Shown here: one piece after another, positions 21,368 through 32,274 of the stretch
How the letters are laid out: the number at the start of each line of letters is the position of its first letter
Numbering within the stretch: position 1 is the first letter of the stretch
Assembly (NCBI GenBank): GCA_963770895.1
Contig: CAVYRF010000002.1
Coordinates: 1,184,001 to 1,248,000 of the forward strand
DNA: 64,000 nt
Direction: 5' to 3'
Origin: an uncultured Acidobacteriota bacterium
GTDB lineage: Bacteria > Acidobacteriota > Thermoanaerobaculia > Multivoradales > UBA5704
The notes under the pieces: generated by a model
Database searches by the model: none
What the model was told of the DNA's origin: nothing
The model's input: the letters and a program-made list of their open reading frames with translations, nothing else
Position numbers and translations under genes: made by a program

Positions 21368-22396
21368 ATGAGCGCAAGGACGACGGATCAAGCTGAAGGA
21401 AGCCACCTCGGGGACCCTCGCGGCAAACGGTCCGCCCGGCAGGCCGCGGCCTTGCGCCGCCTCGATCGCAGCGCACTGCTCGGCTTGTTGGCGGCGCTGG
21501 CGCTCACCCTGGCGCCGCTGCCGGTTGCCGGAGCGCCGGCAAGCGCAGACGCGCCAGGCGCCAATGCCACGCCGCTGGTCCTGAGCGAGGCCACCATCTT
21601 TCCCGCGCCCGATCAGGCGCCGATCCTGGGCGGCGACCTGGTGATCGCCGGCGGCAAGATCGTGGCGCTGGGCAAGCACGGCCAGGTGCCGCTGCCGGCC
21701 GGAGCGAAGACTTTGGATTGCAAGGGGCTCTCGGTGTTTGCCGGCTTCCAGAACAGCCATGTCCATTTGACCGAGCCAAGCTGGTGGGACGCCGACAAGC
21801 TGCCGCCGGCGACGCTCGCGGCGCACCTGCAAGCCATGCTCACCCGCTGGGGCTTCACCACGGTCGTGGACGCCGCATCCTTCCTGCCCAACCTGGCCGG
21901 CCTGGAGGTCGCCCTGGCCGCCCACGTCGACGTCCTGGCCCACGCCGTCGAAGACACCCGCGGCATGACCCCCGACCACCTCAAGCGCATGCGCGCCCAG
22001 GACATGGCCCTCATCCCCACCCTCAAGCTCTTCGCCGAAGACAGCCATCTCTACGAGATCCTGGACGAAGTGCGCGACTACCAGCGCGCGGGAGGGCAAC
22101 TCCTCTTCGGCACCGACGTCGGCTTTCTCGCCGACTACGACCCCACGACCGAATACACCCTGCTCGCCACCGCCGGCCTCAGCTGGCGCGAGATCCTGGC
22201 CACCCTCACCACCAGTCCAGCCGCCCGCTTCGGCGACTCCGCCCGCCGCGGCCGCATCGCCCCCGGCATGGACGCCGACCTGGCAGTCCTTGCCACCAGC
22301 CCCGTCTCCGACCCCCGCGCCTTCGCCAACATCCGCTACACCCTCCGCGCCGGAACCGTCATCTACCAGGCGCCGCCGGCTGGCAAGCAGCCTTAG
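21368..22396 (+). CDS. Amidohydrolase family protein, apparently with an internal in-frame deletion
   Basis: GFQNSHVH, GFTTVVD, VDVLAH, LLFGTDVG, RGRIAPGMDADL; the central barrel segment expected between TTVVD and VDVLAH is absent. Confidence 0.75.
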   Translation: MSARTTDQAEGSHLGDPRGKRSARQAAALRRLDRSALLGLLAALALTLAPLPVAGAPASADAPGANATPLVLSEATIFPAPDQAPILGGDLVIAGGKIVALGKHGQVPLPAGAKTLDCKGLSVFAGFQNSHVHLTEPSWWDADKLPPATLAAHLQAMLTRWGFTTVVDAASFLPNLAGLEVALAAHVDVLAHAVEDTRGMTPDHLKRMRAQDMALIPTLKLFAEDSHLYEILDEVRDYQRAGGQLLFGTDVGFLADYDPTTEYTLLATAGLSWREILATLTTSPAARFGDSARRGRIAPGMDADLAVLATSPVSDPRAFANIRYTLRAGTVIYQAPPAGKQP

Positions 22397-24372
22397 GGCA
22401 GGCGCCGGAGGGTAAAGACTCCCCCGCCGGCCGTAGCGGCATAGAGCAGCGACGGGCTCGCGGCGTCGAACGCGAGATCGGTCACGACAACGTTCGGGGG
22501 CAGGCCTTCCGTCAGGGAGCTCCAGGTGGCGCCGCCGTCGTCGCTCACCGCCAACTGCGGCTGCCCGGCCGTCGGACCCACGGCTGCGTAGAGGGTGTTC
22601 GGCGCGCGAGGATCGACCCGCACCATGCTGAGGCCGCCGGCGGTCAGCAGCGGCTCCCAGGTCGAGCCGCCGTCGCTGCTGCGCTCGAGGCCCCCGACGC
22701 TAGCGGCGTACACCACATCGGCGTTCAGCGGGTCGACCGCCAGGCCGTGCTCCGCATAGGTGGAGATCAGACTCTCCCCGGTCCAGCTGACACCGCCGTC
22801 GTCGCTGCGGAAGAAGGTCGGCCCGGCGGGAGCGTGGGCGAGGAGGGACCCAGAAGCGTAGACACGCGCGGGGTTCGAGGGCGCCAGCGCGATGCTCGCC
22901 ACGGCGACGATGGAGCCGACACCGCTGATCGTCCAGGTTGCTCCGGCGTCGGCGCTCACGCAGACGCCGAACGCTGAGGGGCCGAAAGCTCCCACCAAGA
23001 CCTGCCCCTGGGAACCGACGGCGAGCGGACCGCCGCACGCCGCGGGTGCGCTCGTCACCTGACGCCATGGCACGGCGGGTCCGGAACCACGCTGGTACAG
23101 GCCCGACGCGCCGCTCGGCGTTCCGGCCGACGCGTAGAGCTCTCCGGACGCGGCGTCGCTTGCGAGCTCGCTGATGCTCAACCCGGGCGCCAGTCCGCCG
23201 TTGAGCAGTGCCCACCGGAAGCCCCCGGTGCGGGTGCGGAAGATGCCGGCGTAGGGATCGGCGACGGTGAGCATGCCGCTGGTTTCCGCGTCCGCCACCA
23301 CGGCGGCGATGGACGTGGCGTTGGGCCCGGGACCGGAGACGGCCCAGCGCGCACCGCTCGAAGTGCTGCGGAAGATGCCCACGCCCTCCCGCGGGAGAGC
23401 GCCATCGAGGTACAAGCCGCTGCCGGCAAGGAGGAGCGAGAGCGGGCGCCCCGCCTGGGCCAGCGCGCCGATCGCTTGCCCGGCCGTTCCCGTGCCGCCG
23501 GGATTCCAGCCATGCCCGCCGTTGGCGGTGCGGAACACACCGGCATCCTGAGTGCCCGCCCAGACGGCGCCCGCGGGGTCGGCAAGGAGCGCCAGCACGC
23601 CGCGCGAAGCCAGTCCGCGCACCGCCGCATGCCAGGTGAGCCCCAGGTCGGAGCTCACGAAGAGCGCCGCCGGCAGCGGCTTGACGAACGTCGGGTCGAC
23701 AAAGGCGCCGGCGTACAGAACGCCCTCACTGTCGATCGCCAGCGAAGTGATGTAGCCGGCGAGACCGCTGCTCGTCCGTGCCCAGTGCGCGCCGCCGTCC
23801 AGGCTCCGATAGACGCCGCTTTCGGCGCCCGCCCAGAGCAGCCCCGGCTTGCGGGGATCGACGAGAAGCGCATGCACCGTCGCGGGTATGGGCTGGTCCT
23901 TCAGGAGGCCTTCGTTGATCTCCGTCCAGGTCGTCCCGCCGTCGTCGCTCCGCCAGGCGCCGGCGAAAGTCCCGGCGGCGAAGAGCGGCGGGTTCGGCCC
24001 TGCACCACCGGCCAGCGCGCTCACCGAGCCGGGGGAGCCCGCCAGCAGCCGAAACTGCAGGCCGTGATCGTCGCTGCGGTAGACACCCCTGCTGCCACCG
24101 ACGTAGACGACCGCGCCGGTCGTGACGACATTCTGCAGCTGAGCATCCAGCAAGCCGTCGTTGCTGGCCGTCCAGGAAGCGCCCCCATCCGTCGAGCGAA
24201 AGAAGCCGCCCATCGCCGTGGCGTACGCAACGTTCGCCACGCTGCCGTCAAACGCCAGGCCGGTGACGAAGCCACCCACAGGACCAATGGATATCCACGG
24301 GTTGCTCGCCGCCCCGACCCGCCCGGCGGCAAGGAGAAACACGATCGTTGCGCGGACGCAAATTCGAGACAT
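22393..24372 (-). CDS. Secreted BNR/Asp-box (VPS10/sortilin-like) beta-propeller protein
   Basis: RBS AGGAGGT, signal peptide, NPWISIGP, many S-x-D-G-G-x-S/T-W repeats. Confidence 0.85.
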   Translation of the reverse strand: MSRICVRATIVFLLAAGRVGAASNPWISIGPVGGFVTGLAFDGSVANVAYATAMGGFFRSTDGGASWTASNDGLLDAQLQNVVTTGAVVYVGGSRGVYRSDDHGLQFRLLAGSPGSVSALAGGAGPNPPLFAAGTFAGAWRSDDGGTTWTEINEGLLKDQPIPATVHALLVDPRKPGLLWAGAESGVYRSLDGGAHWARTSSGLAGYITSLAIDSEGVLYAGAFVDPTFVKPLPAALFVSSDLGLTWHAAVRGLASRGVLALLADPAGAVWAGTQDAGVFRTANGGHGWNPGGTGTAGQAIGALAQAGRPLSLLLAGSGLYLDGALPREGVGIFRSTSSGARWAVSGPGPNATSIAAVVADAETSGMLTVADPYAGIFRTRTGGFRWALLNGGLAPGLSISELASDAASGELYASAGTPSGASGLYQRGSGPAVPWRQVTSAPAACGGPLAVGSQGQVLVGAFGPSAFGVCVSADAGATWTISGVGSIVAVASIALAPSNPARVYASGSLLAHAPAGPTFFRSDDGGVSWTGESLISTYAEHGLAVDPLNADVVYAASVGGLERSSDGGSTWEPLLTAGGLSMVRVDPRAPNTLYAAVGPTAGQPQLAVSDDGGATWSSLTEGLPPNVVVTDLAFDAASPSLLYAATAGGGVFTLRRLP

Positions 24373-24494
24373 CGAGACACCTCCTGTTGAACACCTGCTC
24401 CCTTGTACGGCCGCAGCCGCCATTGCGTCGCCCACCGCCGCAGGTCCTACCCAACTCGCCGCCAGAACCTGCAATGCCGCAGGCGCCGCAACGC

Positions 24495-24965
24495 TCAAGG
24501 CCCGAAGGTGATCACGGCGAGCAGGATGACGATGGCGACGATCACCAGGTGCAGCGTGACGTGGAGCGTGTTCGGGCTGATGCCGTGACGCATGGGCAGG
24601 AAGGTGTGGGTGCGGCCGAACATCGTCTGGTAGCGTGCCGCGCGCACCGGGTCTGGGAGCAGCAGGTAGGGAATCCACCACGCCCGCAGCAGGCCGTAGA
24701 TCGCACTGCCGTAGGTGATCCATAGAAACCACAGCAGCCAGTGGGGCAGCGCCGGGCGACCTGCGTTGTGAACAGTGGCTATCAGGCCGATGGCGAAGGG
24801 CAGCGTGCTGAGCACGGTCACCAGGCCGAGCTTGCGGGTCGGGTCCGCCGATTGGACCGCCCGCACGTCGTTCAGCGACCCCAGGGGGATCCAGTCGTGC
24901 AGGGCGATGAACAGCACGACGAAGACTTGCAGTGCCACCAGCAGGTCAATCAGCGTGGACGCCAT
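24495..24965 (-). CDS. Hypothetical integral membrane protein (about 4 TM)
   Basis: RBS AGGAG; hydrophobic helices; LHDWIPLGSLND and PNTLH segments. Confidence 0.75.
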   Translation of the reverse strand: MASTLIDLLVALQVFVVLFIALHDWIPLGSLNDVRAVQSADPTRKLGLVTVLSTLPFAIGLIATVHNAGRPALPHWLLWFLWITYGSAIYGLLRAWWIPYLLLPDPVRAARYQTMFGRTHTFLPMRHGISPNTLHVTLHLVIVAIVILLAVITFGP

Positions 24966-25065: not shown

Positions 25066-26229
25066 CTAATTGAGGAACATCGGCAGGTCGAGGACTTCGA
25101 CGATCTTGGGGCGGTAGGCGGCGCGATCGTAGAAGCGCTGGACGTCGACCTTTTTGACGCCGGTGCCGACGATGTTGATCGGCACGGTGGTGTAGCGGCC
25201 GCCGGCGATGGCGACCATGCGGCCGGTGTCGTGGGCCAGCACCAGGTCGGCGGCCAGGCTGGCGAAGTTGCTGGCGACCAGGCGGTCCAGGGCGTCCGGG
25301 GGGCCGGAGCGCATGAGGTAGCCGAGGCGCTGATAGATCACGCGCTCGCCGGTCGTGCGCTGCAGCTCGTGGCGGAGCAGGCGGCCGATGCCGCCCAGCT
25401 CGCGGTTGCCGATCGAATCGGCTTCGCCGCTTTCGACCGGCTGGCCGCCCACCGGGTAGGCGCCTTCGGAGATGGCGACGACCGCGTAGCTGCTGGGGTT
25501 GCGGCGCTTGTCGGCGGCGAGCAGCTCCACGACCGCGGCGCTGTCGAAGGGGACTTCGGCGATCAGGGCGCGGTCGGTGCCGGCCAGGTAGGAGGCGAGC
25601 AGGCAGGTTTCGCCCGAATAGCGGCCGAACAGCTCGACCACCAGGAAGCGCTCGTGCGAGCCGGCGGCGGTGCGCAGGTCGTGGATGAAGTTGACGGCGC
25701 GGGTGACGGCGGTCGAAAAGCCGATGCAGTATTCGGTGCCGAAGACGTCGTTGTCCATGGTCTTGGGCACGCCGATGGTGGGCACGCCCTCGTCGTGCAG
25801 GCGGCAGGCGAACGACAGGGTGCCGTCGCCGCCGATCGCCACCAGGGCGTCGATGCGCAGAAACTCGATCACTTCCAACGCCGCCTGGGTGAGGTCGCAG
25901 CGGCCCGCGCCGTCGGCCGGGGCGGCGCGGCCCTGCAGGTGGGCGGGGATGCTTTCGGGCTTCATCATCGCCGGGTTGATGCGCGAGGTGTGCAGCATGG
26001 TGCCGCCGCTGCGGTCGATGGTGCGCGTGCTGGCGCGGGTGAGCGGCACCAGCCATTCCGAGTTGTCGGCGGCGGCCAAGGGAACGATGTTGAGCAGGGC
26101 GGCAAAGCCGCGCCGCAGGCCGAGCACTTCGTAGCCCGCCTCTTCCATGCGGGCGACGAAGCCCTTGATTGCCATGTTCAGGCCGGGGACGTCGCCGCCG
26201 CCGGTGAGAATGCCGATTCGTCCGTGCAT
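25066..26229 (-). CDS. pfkA: 6-phosphofructokinase, PfkA family (probably ATP-dependent)
   Basis: IGILTGGGDVPGLN, GGTMLHTSR, IGGDGT, PKTMDND, VVELFGR, LGYLMRSG. Confidence 0.93.
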   Translation of the reverse strand: MHGRIGILTGGGDVPGLNMAIKGFVARMEEAGYEVLGLRRGFAALLNIVPLAAADNSEWLVPLTRASTRTIDRSGGTMLHTSRINPAMMKPESIPAHLQGRAAPADGAGRCDLTQAALEVIEFLRIDALVAIGGDGTLSFACRLHDEGVPTIGVPKTMDNDVFGTEYCIGFSTAVTRAVNFIHDLRTAAGSHERFLVVELFGRYSGETCLLASYLAGTDRALIAEVPFDSAAVVELLAADKRRNPSSYAVVAISEGAYPVGGQPVESGEADSIGNRELGGIGRLLRHELQRTTGERVIYQRLGYLMRSGPPDALDRLVASNFASLAADLVLAHDTGRMVAIAGGRYTTVPINIVGTGVKKVDVQRFYDRAAYRPKIVEVLDLPMFLN

Positions 26230-26341: not shown

Positions 26342-27343
26342 TCAGCCGGCGGCGGCGAGACGATCGATCAGGTCCACCACCCGGTTCGAGTAGCCCCACT
26401 CGTTGTCGTACCAGGCTACCACCCGCACCCAACCGTCGCCGGCGGCGTTGGTCGAAAGCGAGTCGAAGACCGACGAGTGGGGGTTGCCGATGATGTCGGT
26501 CGACACCAGCGACGCTGCACTGTATTCGACCACCCCGGCGAGCGGGCCGGCGGCGGCTTCCCGCACGGCGTCGTTGACGCCGGCCGCGTCGGGCCGCGCC
26601 CGCAACCGCGCCGCGAGATCGACGATCGAACCGTCGGACACCGGCACGCGCATCGCCATGCCGTCAAGCTTACCCTTGAGATGTGGCAATACCTTGCCAA
26701 CCGTGCGGGCCGCTCCGGTGGTGGTCGGGATGATGTTTTGCGCCGCGGCGCGGCTGCGCCGGAAGTCCTTGTGCGGCGCGTCGGCAAGGCGCTGGTCGTT
26801 GGTATAGGCGTGCACGGTGGTCATGAAGCCCTCTTCGAGACCGAAGCGGTCGTCGAGGATCTTGACCACCGGCGCCAGGCAGTTGGTGGTGCACGAGGCG
26901 TTGGAAACCAGCCGATGGGCGGGGCCCAGGATGCCGTCGTTGACGCCGATGACCACGGTCGCGTCCAGCTCGTCCTTGGCCGGCACGGTCAGGATGACCT
27001 TGCCGGCGCCGCCCTGCAGATGCTTGGCGATCTGCGCGCGGCTGGTGAAGACGCCGGTCGACTCGATCACGACGTCCACGCCCAGGTCGCCCCAGGGGAT
27101 GGCCGCCGGATCCCGCTCTTCCAGCATGGCGACCCGCTGGGCGCCGGCATACAGGGTGTGCTCGTCGCAGGTGACCTCCTGCTCGAACGGCCCCATCACC
27201 GTGTCGTACTTGAGCAGGTAGGCCAGCTGGCGGTTCTCGAACAGGTCGTTGATCGCCACGACCTGGTGGTCGGTGCGCGCCGCGACGATGCGGAACACGC
27301 TGCGGCCGATGCGGCCGAAGCCGTTGATGCCGATTCTGCTCAT
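26342..27343 (-). CDS. gap: Type I glyceraldehyde-3-phosphate dehydrogenase
   Basis: GINGFGRIGR, SNASCTTNCLAP, TTVHAYT, NIIPTTTGAA, MRVP, WYDNEWGYS. Confidence 0.97.
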   Translation of the reverse strand: MSRIGINGFGRIGRSVFRIVAARTDHQVVAINDLFENRQLAYLLKYDTVMGPFEQEVTCDEHTLYAGAQRVAMLEERDPAAIPWGDLGVDVVIESTGVFTSRAQIAKHLQGGAGKVILTVPAKDELDATVVIGVNDGILGPAHRLVSNASCTTNCLAPVVKILDDRFGLEEGFMTTVHAYTNDQRLADAPHKDFRRSRAAAQNIIPTTTGAARTVGKVLPHLKGKLDGMAMRVPVSDGSIVDLAARLRARPDAAGVNDAVREAAAGPLAGVVEYSAASLVSTDIIGNPHSSVFDSLSTNAAGDGWVRVVAWYDNEWGYSNRVVDLIDRLAAAG

Positions 27344-28497
27344 GGCGCGGGCTCCGTGACTTCGCCTCGATGGCGATTGGCGGGGGCGGGGGCGTTGGCG
27401 GCAGCGGCGGCGTCGTCGAGCTGGCGGCAGCGCACCACCAGGTCCAGCGCGCGCTGCGCGTACGCCCAGCTGTTGTCGAACCAGGTGAGGGTCTTGGACA
27501 CGCGCCCGCCCAGTACCATGGTGGCCTGGCTGTCGAAGATCCCCGAATGGGTGGCATGCTGGACGTCGGCCGAGACGATCGGCTCCTCCTCATACGCCAG
27601 GATGCCGGCAAGCCCCGCCGCCGCCTGGCGCACCGCGCGGTTGACGTCTTCGACGCTGACCGGCTGGGGGTGCCAGCAGACCAGGTCGAGCGCCGAGCCG
27701 TTGGCGACCGGCACGTTCATCGACGAGCCGCTCAGCTTGCCGCGCAGAGCCGGCAACAGCGCCATCACCACGTCGGCCGCCGCCGCCGGCAGCGGGATGA
27801 TGTTTTGTGCCGCCGCGCGCCCCCAGCGGGGGTCGGCCGCCGGGACGTCGGCGAGGTGCTGTTGATCGACGTAGGCGTGCACGGTGTTGAGGAACCCGCG
27901 CTCGATGCCGAACGCCTGGTGCAGGATCTTGACCACCGGCGCCGCGGCGTGGGCCGCGGGCGAGGCGTGGGAGACAATGCGATGCTCGGCGCGCAGCTGG
28001 GCGTCGTTGGCGCCGGCGACGACCATGACGTCGGGCGCCAGGTCGGCGATGAAGTCAGCCTGGTTGCCCGCGGCGCCGACCTGCTGGCCGCTATTGGCGG
28101 GGGTCGCCGGGGCGGCGGGCGCGGCGGGGGCGCACAGGATCACCCGCCTGGCGCCGGCCGCGAGGTGCCGCTCCAGGTCGGCGCGGCTGCGCGACCGGCC
28201 GGAGGTCTCGATCACCGTGTCGACACCCAGGTCGCCCCACGAGGCGTCCTGCGGCGTCCCCGCCAGCAGGCGCACCTGCCGGCCGCCGGCGTGCAGCATG
28301 TCGCCGTCGAGCGTGAGCGGCGCCGGGAAGCGCCCCAGGAGGGTGTCGAATCGCAGCAGGTAGGCCAGCGCGGCCCGGTCGGACGGGTCGCTGACCGCTT
28401 CCAGCCGCAGGTCGTCGCGGTCGTGCAGCAGGCGAAAGAGATTTCGCCCGATTCGTCCCAATCCCAACACGGCGACACGCGTGACGCGCCTGGTCAT
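27340..28497 (-). CDS. GAPDH paralogue lacking the catalytic cysteine (pseudoenzyme candidate)
   Basis: Full-length GAPDH alignment (GLGRIGRN, WGDLGVD, TVHAY, RAAAQNIIP, WFDN) but SHASPAAHAAAP replaces SNASCTTNCLAP; open frame; ATGA overlap with gap. Confidence 0.88.
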   Translation of the reverse strand: MTRRVTRVAVLGLGRIGRNLFRLLHDRDDLRLEAVSDPSDRAALAYLLRFDTLLGRFPAPLTLDGDMLHAGGRQVRLLAGTPQDASWGDLGVDTVIETSGRSRSRADLERHLAAGARRVILCAPAAPAAPATPANSGQQVGAAGNQADFIADLAPDVMVVAGANDAQLRAEHRIVSHASPAAHAAAPVVKILHQAFGIERGFLNTVHAYVDQQHLADVPAADPRWGRAAAQNIIPLPAAAADVVMALLPALRGKLSGSSMNVPVANGSALDLVCWHPQPVSVEDVNRAVRQAAAGLAGILAYEEEPIVSADVQHATHSGIFDSQATMVLGGRVSKTLTWFDNSWAYAQRALDLVVRCRQLDDAAAAANAPAPANRHRGEVTEPAP

Positions 28498-28714
28498 CCG
28501 CAGCCCCCTCTGGGGGATCGGTCGCGACCTGGGCCCCCGCCGGACCGCCCTGCGCGCCGCCCCTCCGCCTTCAGACCTTAACACGATCGTAACCGCCTGG
28601 GACCGCCGGACCCGGCTCGTCGAGCGGGGGCGGCGAGACTTCTGGACAACGCCCGATCCGCTTGACACCATCGCAGCGTCGGCGGCCCTGCCGCCGCCGA
28701 ACCGGAGGTGCCGT

Positions 28715-29749
28715 TTGCTGATCCCGCCAGGGTTGCCGCGCCGCGCGCGCGGGCTGCTCGCCATCGCCCTGTGGCTCGCGGTCGCGGCCGCCGCCGCGGC
28801 GCAGAAGATGTCGTTCCAGGACCCCACCGGCGACGACAACGGTCCCGGAACGTACGTCTATCCCACCGACCCGGTGTACACGCCCGGCTCCTTCGACATG
28901 ACCAACGTCGAAATGAAGGTGCACAAAGACACGGTGGACGTCGAGGTCACGATGGCGGGCAAGCTCGCCGACGCATGGCACACGGGCAGCGGCTTTTCTG
29001 TCCAGACGGTGTTCCTCTTCTTCCAGACCGACGGCCCCGAGCAGTCGGTGCCGCCCAAGGACAAGAAGACCCTCCGCGCCGAAAAGCGGGCGGCGGCCGA
29101 AAAGCTGGCGGAAGAGAAGATCAAGCAGAAGCTCAACGGCACCCCGATACCACCGCCGACGCCCAAGGTCAGGAAGCCGTACGGCCACACCCAGAGCCTG
29201 CCGGGGATGAACGTGGAGTTCGCTCCCGCCGACGGGTGGGACCACTGCGTCATCCTGTCGCCGCTGCCGGCGGCGCAGGTGCAGGCGGCGGTGGACAGCA
29301 AGGTGCCCGCTCCCCTGCGCGGCGCCGTCCTGGTGCCGGCGCGGGTCAAGGGCGCCGGCCACGTCATCTCCGCCACCTTCGACCGCAAGCCGCTCGGCAA
29401 GCACCTGCCCAAGACCTGGGGCTACCAGGTGGTGGTGGTCGGCACCGACCCCTACCCCGGCACCGACAGCCTGTTCGTGCGTCCGGTGAGCGAAACGGAA
29501 AGCCAGCTGCGCTTCGGCGGCGGCGCCGGCGGCGGCTGCGACGCCAACGTGCTGGACGTCCTGGCCGGCGATGCGGAGGCCGACGCAGCCGAAATCGACA
29601 AGCAGCACACCCAGCTGCTGGGCGACTGCACCAGCACGGATGCCAAGCTCCACAGGCTCCCCACCCTCAGCCTGGTCTACGTCCACGACGAGGACGAAGC
29701 CGAGGAGAAGAAAGACGAGCAGCCAAAGCCTCCGACGCCGCCCCAGTGA
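28715..29749 (+). CDS. Secreted glucodextranase-type DOMON-like (carbohydrate-binding) domain protein
   Basis: GGAGG then TTG 28715; signal peptide; FQDPTGDDNGPGTYVYPTD...GSFD, GFSVQ, WGYQVVV, FGGG. Confidence 0.78.
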   Translation: MLIPPGLPRRARGLLAIALWLAVAAAAAAQKMSFQDPTGDDNGPGTYVYPTDPVYTPGSFDMTNVEMKVHKDTVDVEVTMAGKLADAWHTGSGFSVQTVFLFFQTDGPEQSVPPKDKKTLRAEKRAAAEKLAEEKIKQKLNGTPIPPPTPKVRKPYGHTQSLPGMNVEFAPADGWDHCVILSPLPAAQVQAAVDSKVPAPLRGAVLVPARVKGAGHVISATFDRKPLGKHLPKTWGYQVVVVGTDPYPGTDSLFVRPVSETESQLRFGGGAGGGCDANVLDVLAGDAEADAAEIDKQHTQLLGDCTSTDAKLHRLPTLSLVYVHDEDEAEEKKDEQPKPPTPPQ

Positions 29750-30315: not shown

Positions 30316-32274
30316 TCAGTTGGTGCGGGCGAGCAGGACGCCGTTGCCGATCTGGCGCTCGATCTCGGCGGCGGCGACCGGCTTGCTGACCAGGTAGCCC
30401 TGGTACTCGTCGCAGCCCTGGCCGCTCAGGAAGTGGAACTGGCTGGCGGTTTCGACGCCTTCGGCGATCACCTTCAGCCCCAGGCCGTGCGCCATGTCGA
30501 TGATCGCGGTGACGATCGCTTCGCCGCCGTGATCGGAATCGATGTCGCGCACGAAATCGCGGTCGATCTTGAGGCAGTCGATGGGCAGGCGCTTGAGGTA
30601 GTTGAGCGACGCCTGGCCGGTGCCGAAGTCGTCCATCGAGATGCGCACCCCCAGCCGGCGCAACGCCGCGAGCGTCGCCACGGTCTGCTCGATGTCCTGC
30701 ATGGCGGCGCTTTCGGTGATCTCCAGCTCCAGGCAGTCCGGCGCCAGGTCGATCTCGCGCAGCAGCGCCGCGACCGCCCGCGGCAGGTCCGAGTCCTGGA
30801 AGTGCCGCACCGACAGGTTGACGGCGATGCGCAGGCCGGGCAGCGGACCGTCCTGCCAGTCGCGGGCCTGGCGGCAGGCGGTGGCCAGCACCCATTCGCC
30901 CAGCGGGATCACCAGGCGCAGCTCTTCGGCCAGCGGGATGAAGTGGGCCGGCGCCACCAGGCCGCGCTCGGGATGGCGCCAGCGCACCAGCGCCTCCATC
31001 CCCACGGTGAGACCGCTGGCAAAGCTCACCACCGGCTGGTACAGGACTTCCAGCTCGCGCCGTTCCAGCGCCCGCCGCAGGTCGTTCTCCAGCGCCAGGC
31101 GCGCCAGGGCCTTGGCGTTCATCGCCGGGGTGCACAGCTGGTAGACGCCGCCGCCCAGCTCCTTGGACCGGTACAGGGCCAGGTCGGCGCTGCGCAGGAG
31201 CGTTTCGGCGTCCTCGCCGTCGGAGGGGAACAGGCTGATGCCGACCGCGGCGGTCACGTGCAGGGTGTGCTCGTCCAGGTGGAAGGGTTCGTCGGCCAGC
31301 CGGGCCAGGATCTTTTCGGCCACCTTGGCCCCTTCGGCGGCGCGGGCGTTGTACTGCAGCAGCAGGGCGAATTCGTCGCCGCCCAGGCGCGCCACCGTGT
31401 CGCCCTGCCGCACCATCGCCCGCAGCCGGCCGGACACACCGCACAACAGCCGGTCGCCGATGCTGTGGCCCAGCGTGTCGTTGACCACCTTGAACCGGTC
31501 CAGGTCGAGCACCAGCACCGCCAGCCCGGTGTCGGTGCGGTGCGTCTTGGCGATCGACTGCGACAGGCGGTCCAGGAAGAGGGTGCGATTGGGCAGGCCG
31601 GTGAGGTGGTCGTGGTAGGCCTGGTAGGCGATCTGCACTTCGGCCGCCTTGCGGTCGGTGATGTCGATCAGGGTGCCTTCGATCAGGTCGGCTTCGCCGT
31701 CGTGCCCCGGCCGCCAGGTGACGTTTTCGAGGATCCACACTTCGCCGCCGTCCTTGCGCCGCAGCCGGAACTCCGCGTTGTTGAGCTGGCCGGCGGTGCG
31801 CAGGCGGGCGATGAAGCGCTCGCGTTCCGCCGCGTCCAGATAGAGATCGTTGGCGTTGCAGCGCATCAGCTCGGTTTCGGAGGCATAGCCCAGCAGATGG
31901 GCCAGCGCCGGGTTGCACTCAAGGAAGGCGCCGTCCACCGAGATGCGGTAGATCCCGGCCAGGGTGCGCTCGAAAAACAGCCGGTAGCGCCGCTGCCCCT
32001 TGGCCAGCCGCGCCATTTCCCGCCGCAGCAGGGCGGCGACGCGCAGCGAGATCCAGGTCGAAGCGGCGAGCAGCACCGTCGCCGTCGCCACCAGAGCCAT
32101 CAGCGCCGGGTCGTCGATCCACTCCAGCCAGCCCTTGGCGGCGACCAGCGTCACCACCACCGCCGCCGCCCACAGCACCAGGCAGAGCGGGATGAGGACC
32201 AGTGCGCGCTCGATCGTCGAGGCGCGGGACGCACTGGCTGCCGTGTCACGCGGCGGGCTGGTTGGATCAGTCAT
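30316..32274 (-). CDS. Membrane PAS-GGDEF-EAL c-di-GMP cyclase/phosphodiesterase
   Basis: Two TM helices, PAS/PAC, LTGLPNR, RLGGDEF, EALVRW, LEITES, DDFGTG, KIDRDF, AEGVET. Confidence 0.95.
   Translation of the reverse strand: MTDPTSPPRDTAASASRASTIERALVLIPLCLVLWAAAVVVTLVAAKGWLEWIDDPALMALVATATVLLAASTWISLRVAALLRREMARLAKGQRRYRLFFERTLAGIYRISVDGAFLECNPALAHLLGYASETELMRCNANDLYLDAAERERFIARLRTAGQLNNAEFRLRRKDGGEVWILENVTWRPGHDGEADLIEGTLIDITDRKAAEVQIAYQAYHDHLTGLPNRTLFLDRLSQSIAKTHRTDTGLAVLVLDLDRFKVVNDTLGHSIGDRLLCGVSGRLRAMVRQGDTVARLGGDEFALLLQYNARAAEGAKVAEKILARLADEPFHLDEHTLHVTAAVGISLFPSDGEDAETLLRSADLALYRSKELGGGVYQLCTPAMNAKALARLALENDLRRALERRELEVLYQPVVSFASGLTVGMEALVRWRHPERGLVAPAHFIPLAEELRLVIPLGEWVLATACRQARDWQDGPLPGLRIAVNLSVRHFQDSDLPRAVAALLREIDLAPDCLELEITESAAMQDIEQTVATLAALRRLGVRISMDDFGTGQASLNYLKRLPIDCLKIDRDFVRDIDSDHGGEAIVTAIIDMAHGLGLKVIAEGVETASQFHFLSGQGCDEYQGYLVSKPVAAAEIERQIGNGVLLARTN

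Follow-up and report, generated by a model that had tools for sequence, protein, structure and literature searches.

A GAPDH paralogue without catalytic residues, overlapping gap in an uncultured Acidobacteriota bacterium, belongs to an old family shared by several phyla

In a stretch of 64,000 nucleotides (nt) from an uncultured Acidobacteriota bacterium (assembly GCA_963770895.1, contig CAVYRF010000002.1, positions 1,184,001 to 1,248,000; hereafter the window), a gene for a paralogue of glyceraldehyde-3-phosphate dehydrogenase (GAPDH) lies directly upstream of a canonical gap gene and overlaps it. A reading made earlier from the DNA alone (the sequence-only reading) had described an intact frame, an ATGA overlap and a paralogue-gap-pfk run, and we recovered all three, at these positions of the window:

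27340..28497, minus strand: the GAPDH paralogue, an open frame of 385 amino acids (aa) plus stop with a GAPDH fold
26342..27343, minus strand: canonical type I gap, 333 aa, active site complete (SNASCTTN, TVHAYT, MRVP)
27340..27343, minus strand: ATGA stop/start overlap of paralogue and gap (paralogue TGA 27340-27342, gap ATG 27341-27343)
25066..26229, minus strand: phosphofructokinase (PFK)-family gene, 112 nt downstream of gap (Pfam PFK, E 2.3e-66)

The Pfam domains Gp_dh_N and Gp_dh_C are found in the paralogue (PF00044, E 2.2e-20; PF02800, E 9.5e-46) and in the neighbouring Gap alike, and the two proteins are 42% identical over 354 columns (BLASTP, E 2e-88). The PFK-family gene falls below the cutoffs of the NCBIfam PFK models. 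The contig also carries, away from the window, a third GAPDH homologue whose active site is complete (SGASCTTN, VIHSYT, TVRVPT) and which is directly followed by phosphoglycerate kinase (G000 contig 2, about 1520.1-1522.7 kb; locus L005, 1501-2631 and 283-1485, both minus strand). This distant gap-pgk pair is probably the housekeeping pair, and its separate location indicates that the pair in the window is an additional module.

Catalytic or phosphate-site roles in GAPDH are assigned to Cys149, His176, Thr179, Arg231 and Ser148 (PMC12041015, section 38). In a pairwise alignment with the neighbouring Gap, every substitution listed by the sequence-only reading proved real: the paralogue has Pro for Cys149, Ala for the second Cys, Val for Thr179 (YVDQ vs YTND), LPAA for TTTG and Asn for Arg231. 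Ser148 is retained, as are the motifs that had been named as kept, GLGRIGR, TVHAY (with His176), RAAAQNIIP and WFDN. The features of the paralogue are as follows:

28444..28464, minus strand: GLGRIGR, residues 12-18, the dinucleotide-binding GxGxxG, retained
28042..28113, minus strand: Pro/Ala-rich lineage-specific insert, about residues 129-152, predicted disordered (predicted local distance difference test, pLDDT, <50)
27958..27960, minus strand: Pro180 codon at the catalytic Cys149 position (SHASPAAH vs SNASCTTN in gap)
27793..27870, minus strand: S-loop, residues 210-235, VDQQHLADVPAADPRWGRAAAQNIIP, with Val for Thr179 and Trp for the second Arg of RR
27772..27792, minus strand: degenerate inorganic phosphate (Pi)-site loop LPAAAAD, residues 236-242 (gap TTTGAAR; family consensus QETNAAE)
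27715..27717, minus strand: Asn261 codon at the Arg231 position (MNVP vs MRVP in gap; gtt on the plus strand)
27343..27429, minus strand: C-terminal extension past the end of Gap, about residues 357-385, a longer C-terminal helix common to the family

The region around the Pi loop reads PLPAAAA in the paralogue vs PTTTGAA in gap. With Cys149, Thr179 and Arg231 all gone, phosphorylating GAPDH chemistry should be impossible, which supports the catalytic death proposed earlier. For positions 119, 152, 206-209 and 313 we transferred the usual GAPDH numbering to the paralogue and take these to be the matching residues.

On TIGR01534, the model of type I phosphorylating GAPDH (GapA, EC 1.2.1.12), the neighbouring Gap passes the cutoff of 367.2 bits with 421.5, whereas the paralogue reaches 267.5. 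It likewise stays far below the cutoffs for erythrose-4-phosphate dehydrogenase (TIGR01532, 250.1 bits vs 530.55) and ArsJ-associated GAPDH (NF033735, 233.3 vs 450). An AlphaFold2 model built on an alignment of 73 family sequences had a mean pLDDT of 86.2 and a predicted template-modelling score of 0.85, with low confidence limited to the insert at 129-152 and part of the S-loop, and with a helix at residues 344-368. Its best Foldseek matches were Bacillus stearothermophilus GAPDH (template-modelling score, TMt, 0.91-0.92). The paralogue is thus like type I GAPDH in both Pfam domains, fold, GxGxxG, His176, S-loop and WxDN, but differs in the missing Cys149, Thr179 and Arg231, the degenerate Pi loop, the score below cutoff and the phylogenetic split described below. 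Among the best 60 sequence matches in the PDB there was no natural Cys-less relative; the top ones were the engineered B. stearothermophilus variants C149S and C149A (1nq5, 1npt), which are also the best fold matches and, by their entry titles, still fold and bind NAD+. Unlike the paralogue, these are laboratory mutants with all other site residues intact. An ESM Atlas search returned generic GAPDH clusters only.

A word-indexed protein search with the paralogue yielded 2263 proteins at E <=0.001. The best 120 of these (P0003-P0121 and the query, P0001), all at E 1e-118 or better, were with one exception 54-87% identical to the paralogue, closer than its own neighbour Gap. Those with a name at source come from Acidobacteriota or Thermoanaerobaculia and are called 'glyceraldehyde 3-phosphate dehydrogenase' or 'NAD-binding domain-containing protein', generic labels under which metabolic reconstructions would count the paralogue as a second active gap. 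The proteins P0003 and P0004, 87% and 77% identical to the paralogue, retain the same odd residues; a metagenome scan did not recover the contigs that encode them. In an exhaustive search, 124 of the best 150 representatives at 50% identity were of alignable length, and 25 of the 124 lacked Cys149, Arg231 or both, two of the 25 being truncated canonical gaps.

We pooled genome loci, search matches and four cluster representatives into 156 family sequences, which may include duplicates between sources. Position 231 is Asn in 138 of them (otherwise S6, D4, T3, R2, C1, K1, H1). Position 149 is far more diverse (N55, C47, S24, A12, P10, V6, D1, F1) and, by parsimony, must have changed at least 24 times on a FastTree tree from which that column had been left out. 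The Pi loop mostly reads QETNA, QDTNS or QETNS; the LPAAA of the window protein occurs in only 3/156. GxGxxG, the Asp of ISD and Asn313 are retained in the family, and the family alignment of 73 sequences (A1) shows no variation at G12, G14, R18, L215, A216, D217, P219, R224, R227, A228, A229 and N232. The sequence-only reading had made Cys loss the hallmark, which does not hold for a family in which 47 of the 156 members retain the Cys and replacement of Arg231 by Asn, along with a remodelled Pi loop, is nearly universal. Judged from these alignments, the hallmark of the family is the loss of Arg231 together with phosphate-site remodelling, and Cys loss is frequent and repeated, and apparently tolerated. 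Seven upstream copies (L001, L002, L052-L056) retain both Cys149 and Arg231 (SNASCTAH, LRVPV) along with the family marks TAH and WFDNSWAY, and may be still-active intermediates. By its site states, the family would thereby form a graded series in which Cys and Arg are kept, then Cys only, then neither.

The gene order recurs as well. Of 41 related genomes, the window's included, 33 have the paralogue immediately in front of a canonical gap. Among the 32 complete paralogues that we tabulated, all with a canonical partner gap, the Cys site is C11, S8, N5, A3, P2, D1, V1 and F1, position 231 is N28, D2 and S2 and never Arg, and His176 is lost in five, four of them from the window's genus. Junctions at 35 related loci comprised 21 overlaps of 4 nt, 10 overlaps of 1 nt, one abutting pair and one at +3 nt, the remaining two being unresolved (a fragmentary gap, and a junction that the script missed though TGATG is visible). 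When 201 genomes from across the phylum were searched with a profile, 23 had two matches side by side (21/198 without three unpublished genomes), 16 of the 23 being counted by score and adjacency only, with the active site unread. In 19 of these 23 genomes, again including the window's, the upstream copy scored at least 491 bits; in G031, G231, G093 and G189 it was more divergent. Among the rows listed, every gap at 413-470 bits had a paralogue next to it, and no stand-alone gap exceeded 397 bits.

Outside the Acidobacteriota, the non-canonical cluster P0160 led us to 61 loci, whose titles give the phylum as Marinimicrobia, Neomarinimicrobiota or Fidelibacterota, or in many cases just 'uncultured bacterium'. 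The paralogue stands directly upstream of a canonical gap in 59 of the 61, the other two lying at contig edges, and every one of the 61 paralogues has NVP at position 231; among the most frequent motifs listed, the leading residue at position 149 is Ser or Ala. Despite the AT-rich DNA, all 59 junctions fall within -7 to +3, 35 of them at -4. The same pair was found in single loci titled Eisenbacteria, Acidimicrobiia, Actinomycetota, Thermoanaerobaculia and Polarisedimenticolaceae. The search for Cys-less paralogues beside gap that had been suggested with the sequence-only reading thus shows tight coupling across related loci and Marinimicrobia, and the recurrence of the same substitutions and gene order in dozens of genomes argues against chance. 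The flanks vary by genome (PFK, glycogen phosphorylase, alpha-amylase, pyruvate kinase, enolase), gap alone being constant; PFK follows gap at the window locus and at L027. Two apparent paralogue-gap fusions, P0005 (673 aa) and P0272 (677 aa), were rejected, as the C-terminal third of the paralogue runs out of frame into gap. Given the out-of-frame gene overlap, a single indel suffices for a read-through of this type; P0005 and P0272 are sequencing errors or real broken copies, and a search for longer fusion proteins found none beyond these two.

The phylogeny places the paralogue in an old multi-phylum family and does not make it a recent offshoot of the neighbouring gap. In a tree of 73 rows (IQ-TREE, posterior mean site frequency (PMSF) model, quick search, root not known), one branch with a Shimodaira-Hasegawa-like approximate likelihood ratio test (SH-aLRT) support of 99 sets 33 non-canonical sequences (15 acidobacterial paralogues, 12 Marinimicrobia paralogues and 6 representatives) apart from 40 canonical partner and stand-alone gaps. 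Recent tandem duplication of the adjacent gap was rejected: forcing the paralogues and gaps of Acidobacteriota into one clade costs 169.7 log-likelihood units (lnL), indicating that the paralogue did not arise recently from its neighbour, with p 4e-7 in an approximately unbiased (AU) test that shares the model's weakness with long branches. Within the order, the subtrees of paralogue and gap largely agree in how they group the genomes; between phyla, the paralogue-gap module may have been transferred.

Codon-based estimates indicate that the gene is under purifying selection. Under a maximum-likelihood (ML) codon model (GY+F3X4; 14 family genomes and 6 window-subclade genomes per gene), omega was 0.056 for the paralogue vs 0.043 for gap across the 14 genomes, and 0.153 vs 0.078 in the window's subclade. 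The dN/dS check proposed with the sequence-only reading therefore came out far from 1. Nei-Gojobori estimates (0.11-0.88; even for gap 0.13-0.34) were set aside in favour of ML, as strong bias in GC content at third codon positions (GC3) probably depresses dS and so inflates them.

Conservation is similar in extent to that of gap and differs in where it falls. At a level of >=85%, 182 columns are conserved in the family (142 sequences, window subclade left out) vs 188 in 32 partner gaps. Ninety-nine conserved columns are identical in both, and 27 are conserved but different, including T119C, T151A, D181Q, T206Q, R231N, Y311F and E314G. Compared over one set of 24 genomes, paralogue columns have a mean pairwise identity of 0.68 and gap columns one of 0.75. 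No segment of the family is better conserved than the S-loop (0.87 vs 0.91 in gap), and none is less conserved than the Pi loop (0.64 vs 0.97 in gap). Two family traits are absent from the partner gaps: Cys122 (codon 28132-28134, minus strand), a family-specific Cys in place of Thr119 in 100% of the 142 sequences, and the motif DLVCWH, at least 90% conserved in the family, with Cys274-Trp275-His276 at 27676-27684 (minus strand).

A Gap-paralogue heterodimer modelled with custom alignments gave a median ipSAE of 0.67, with 0.00 for the best of three controls; the mark applied to this score is reached by 116 of 157 solved complexes and by 2 of 215 mismatched pairs. The runs showed at least 98% contact agreement, and partner pLDDT was 86 in each of three runs (threshold 85). 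At 41 aligned interface positions of the modelled interface, conservation in the paralogue family is 0.88 vs 0.71 elsewhere (Mann-Whitney, p 1.3e-6 overall and 5e-6 within the catalytic domain), whereas the same comparison for the partner Gap gives 0.79 vs 0.79. As far as the model defines the interface, constraint on the paralogue thus falls mainly on the S-loop and on the predicted contact surface of the dimer, and not on the substrate pocket.

Taken together, the comparisons of sequences make it well supported that the paralogue has lost GAPDH chemistry and retained a function. As to what that function is, we see about an even chance that the paralogue is a GAPDH-inactive subunit that co-assembles with the downstream Gap and binds NAD(H). 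Within type I GAPDH it falls into an old subfamily that has no name; it has kept the fold, the dinucleotide motif, the S-loop and the oligomer interface and has lost the thiol nucleophile and both phosphate sites. Made together with the downstream Gap by translational coupling through the ATGA overlap, it would enter a mixed tetramer as a subunit that has no catalysis of its own and probably binds NAD(H), and there might tune or stabilise the active subunits of an accessory glycolytic GAPDH, the second in the genome. The steps that we infer are physical co-assembly, the binding of NAD(H) and an effect on the partner.

A wider proposal is more tentative, with chances that we place somewhat short of even. 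Ancient non-catalytic GAPDH subunits over several phyla (Acidobacteriota, Fidelibacterota/Marinimicrobia and single loci of metagenome-assembled genomes titled Eisenbacteria and Actinomycetota) might form obligate mixed tetramers with a dedicated Gap. Such tetramers would constitute a glycolytic GAPDH that is regulated or senses redox state, and would be the first in bacteria to correspond to plant A2B2, with a natural series from active through Cys-only to fully dead subunits.

Several observations weigh against co-assembly with Gap. The heterodimer model may only mirror likeness to solved GAPDH tetramers, and it cannot separate a hetero-oligomer from a homo-oligomer. The interface comparison uses unequal sets (142 vs 32 sequences) and an interface taken from the model. 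No Rosetta-stone support exists, the apparent fusions P0005 and P0272 being frameshift read-throughs. The Cys is kept in 47/156 members and His176 in 138/156, and since L001, L002 and L052-L056 keep both Cys and Arg231, some members may still be enzymes. In the window's lineage, constraint is relaxed (omega 0.153) and the end branch of the paralogue is long (0.36 vs 0.17 for gap). Finally, the replacement pocket residues Asn231, Gln206, Thr208 and His152 are themselves conserved, which fits a ligand or catalytic pocket of a new type more than a passive subunit.

This last point leads to the alternative that survives best, though we consider it unlikely: an independent homo-oligomer with a new ligand, or with an NAD-dependent activity on a non-phosphorylated substrate that needs no thiol nucleophile. 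Its pocket would comprise Asn231, Gln206, Glu207, Thr208, Asn209, His152 and His176, and its linkage to gap would reflect only a shared sugar/glycogen pathway, in keeping with the glycolytic and glycogen-related neighbours (PFK, glycogen phosphorylase, amylase, pyruvate kinase, enolase). Besides Asn231, His152 (126/156) and Gln181 (131/156) are conserved, QETN-type loops dominate, His176 persists in most members, position 119 carries its family-specific Cys throughout, and GxGxxG, the Asp of ISD and Asn313 remain. However, position 149 varies freely, and the pocket decays where the Cys is missing: Glu207 is present in 40/45 Cys-keeping vs 48/109 Cys-less members, and His176 in 44/45 vs 92/109. 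The window protein itself has the LPAAA loop and Val for Thr179, and conservation is lowest in the Pi loop and highest at the interface. Stop/start overlaps are more typical of subunits made in fixed ratio, and their occurrence across phyla also argues for the partner-subunit reading over a separate enzyme.

Improbable in our view is an NAD(H)-binding regulator or scaffold for partners other than Gap (PFK, other glycolytic enzymes, nucleic acids) acting through the C-terminal helix and the inserts. The helix is family-wide, the conserved family-specific motifs DLVCWH and LRFDTxLGRFP are away from the active site, a disordered insert of 24 aa and a tail mark the window lineage, and PFK follows gap at the window and at L027, but the flanks vary, gap is the only constant neighbour and no other partner consistently co-occurs. 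In the alignment, only the window protein, P0003 and P0004 carry the Pro/Ala-rich insert. An independent Ser/Gln/His-rich insert occurs at about residues 72-90 of the paralogues, in the NAD domain, at L033 and L035 (genomes G006 and G004), from the same genus.

The constraint on the window's own genus-level subclade appears from the codon estimates to be about two to three times weaker, with the pocket further decayed and selection still acting. Pairwise identity there falls to 0.53 in the His176 segment and 0.43 in the Pi loop, and His176 is lost in four of the five other subclade members (L012, L023, L024 and L033). A decaying duplicate on its way to a pseudogene, with the open frame as a leftover, would account for these values, for an omega of 0.153 vs 0.056 in other paralogues, for pairwise Nei-Gojobori ratios of 0.66-0.88 in two pairs and for the long end branch, but it is very improbable given that 0.153 still means strong purifying selection, that frames are intact in 6/6 subclade genomes, that P0003 and P0004 share the odd residues, that the window protein retains 155 of the 182 family-conserved columns, that interface positions stand at 0.81 in the subclade and that the ATGA overlap is kept.

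For a subunit that co-assembles with Gap, the nearest precedent for a mixed GAPDH tetramer is the chloroplast A2B2 enzyme, in which two paralogous GAPDH chains, GapA and GapB, combine and one carries a regulatory C-terminal extension; entries with these names are among the PDB matches of the paralogue, and the heteromer here is a proposal. GapB is active and keeps its catalytic Cys, and its extension is CP12-like with Cys pairs. The paralogue, unlike GapB, is missing catalytic residues, and its tail (RCRQLDD...TEPAP) has one Cys and no Cys pair. A dead paralogue kept beside an active relative is known for other enzymes, and GlgD with GlgC and ClpR with ClpP are non-catalytic paralogue subunits of bacterial enzymes. 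Like these, the GAPDH paralogue is a degenerate, co-inherited copy beside an active relative and under purifying selection, and it would be alike in working if co-assembly were confirmed; unlike them, it belongs to a different enzyme family. Divergent GAPDH paralogues with altered phosphate sites are Epd (TIGR01532) and ArsJ-associated GAPDH (NF033735), as far as the available part of PMC12041015, section 39, describes them; both keep the catalytic Cys, in contrast to the paralogue, which scores far below their cutoffs. In the available part of the same paper, unnamed 'probably inactive' branches of the GapDH superfamily are mentioned only in the legend of Fig. 9.

Full-text literature searches, which did not cover supplements, turned up no account of a bacterial GAPDH paralogue without the Cys, in line with the statement in the sequence-only reading that no bacterial example was known, and a dead GAPDH paralogue in bacteria thus appears to be undescribed. 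GAPDH is among the best-studied enzymes, yet we found no natural bacterial copy without the catalytic residues described, and members of the family are common among Acidobacteriota of soil and Marinimicrobia of the sea. If the paralogue is a partner subunit, it would represent a new regulation of a central glycolytic step, and the family would offer a graded series in which to study how a homomeric enzyme becomes a heteromer with a dead subunit. Should it prove to be a new enzyme or a sensor, its remodelled pocket would be a defined target for ligand screening.

Around the pair in the window, the neighbours examined were gap, the PFK gene, a Glucodextran_C protein and a GNAT protein. The Glucodextran_C-domain protein lies upstream of the paralogue and is divergently transcribed (28481-29749, plus strand). 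Downstream of the cluster, at 22393-24732 (minus strand), is a BNR/Sortilin-Vps10 repeat protein, and a similar BNR protein flanks the pair in L027. A scan for promoters and terminators at the window locus gave nothing useful. An open reading frame at 30316-32274 (minus strand, 652 aa) shows, by eye from its translation, membrane segments and marks of PAS, GGDEF and EAL domains. A comparison with four DNA runs showed near-identical pieces of the locus in soil metagenome contigs. One contig of 917 nt, which may stem from the source sample, spans the gap/paralogue junction with 2 differences; a soil-metagenome contig of run X2 has five small deletions in the Pro/Ala-rich insert at 28075-28112, 12 nt in total, with the frame kept.

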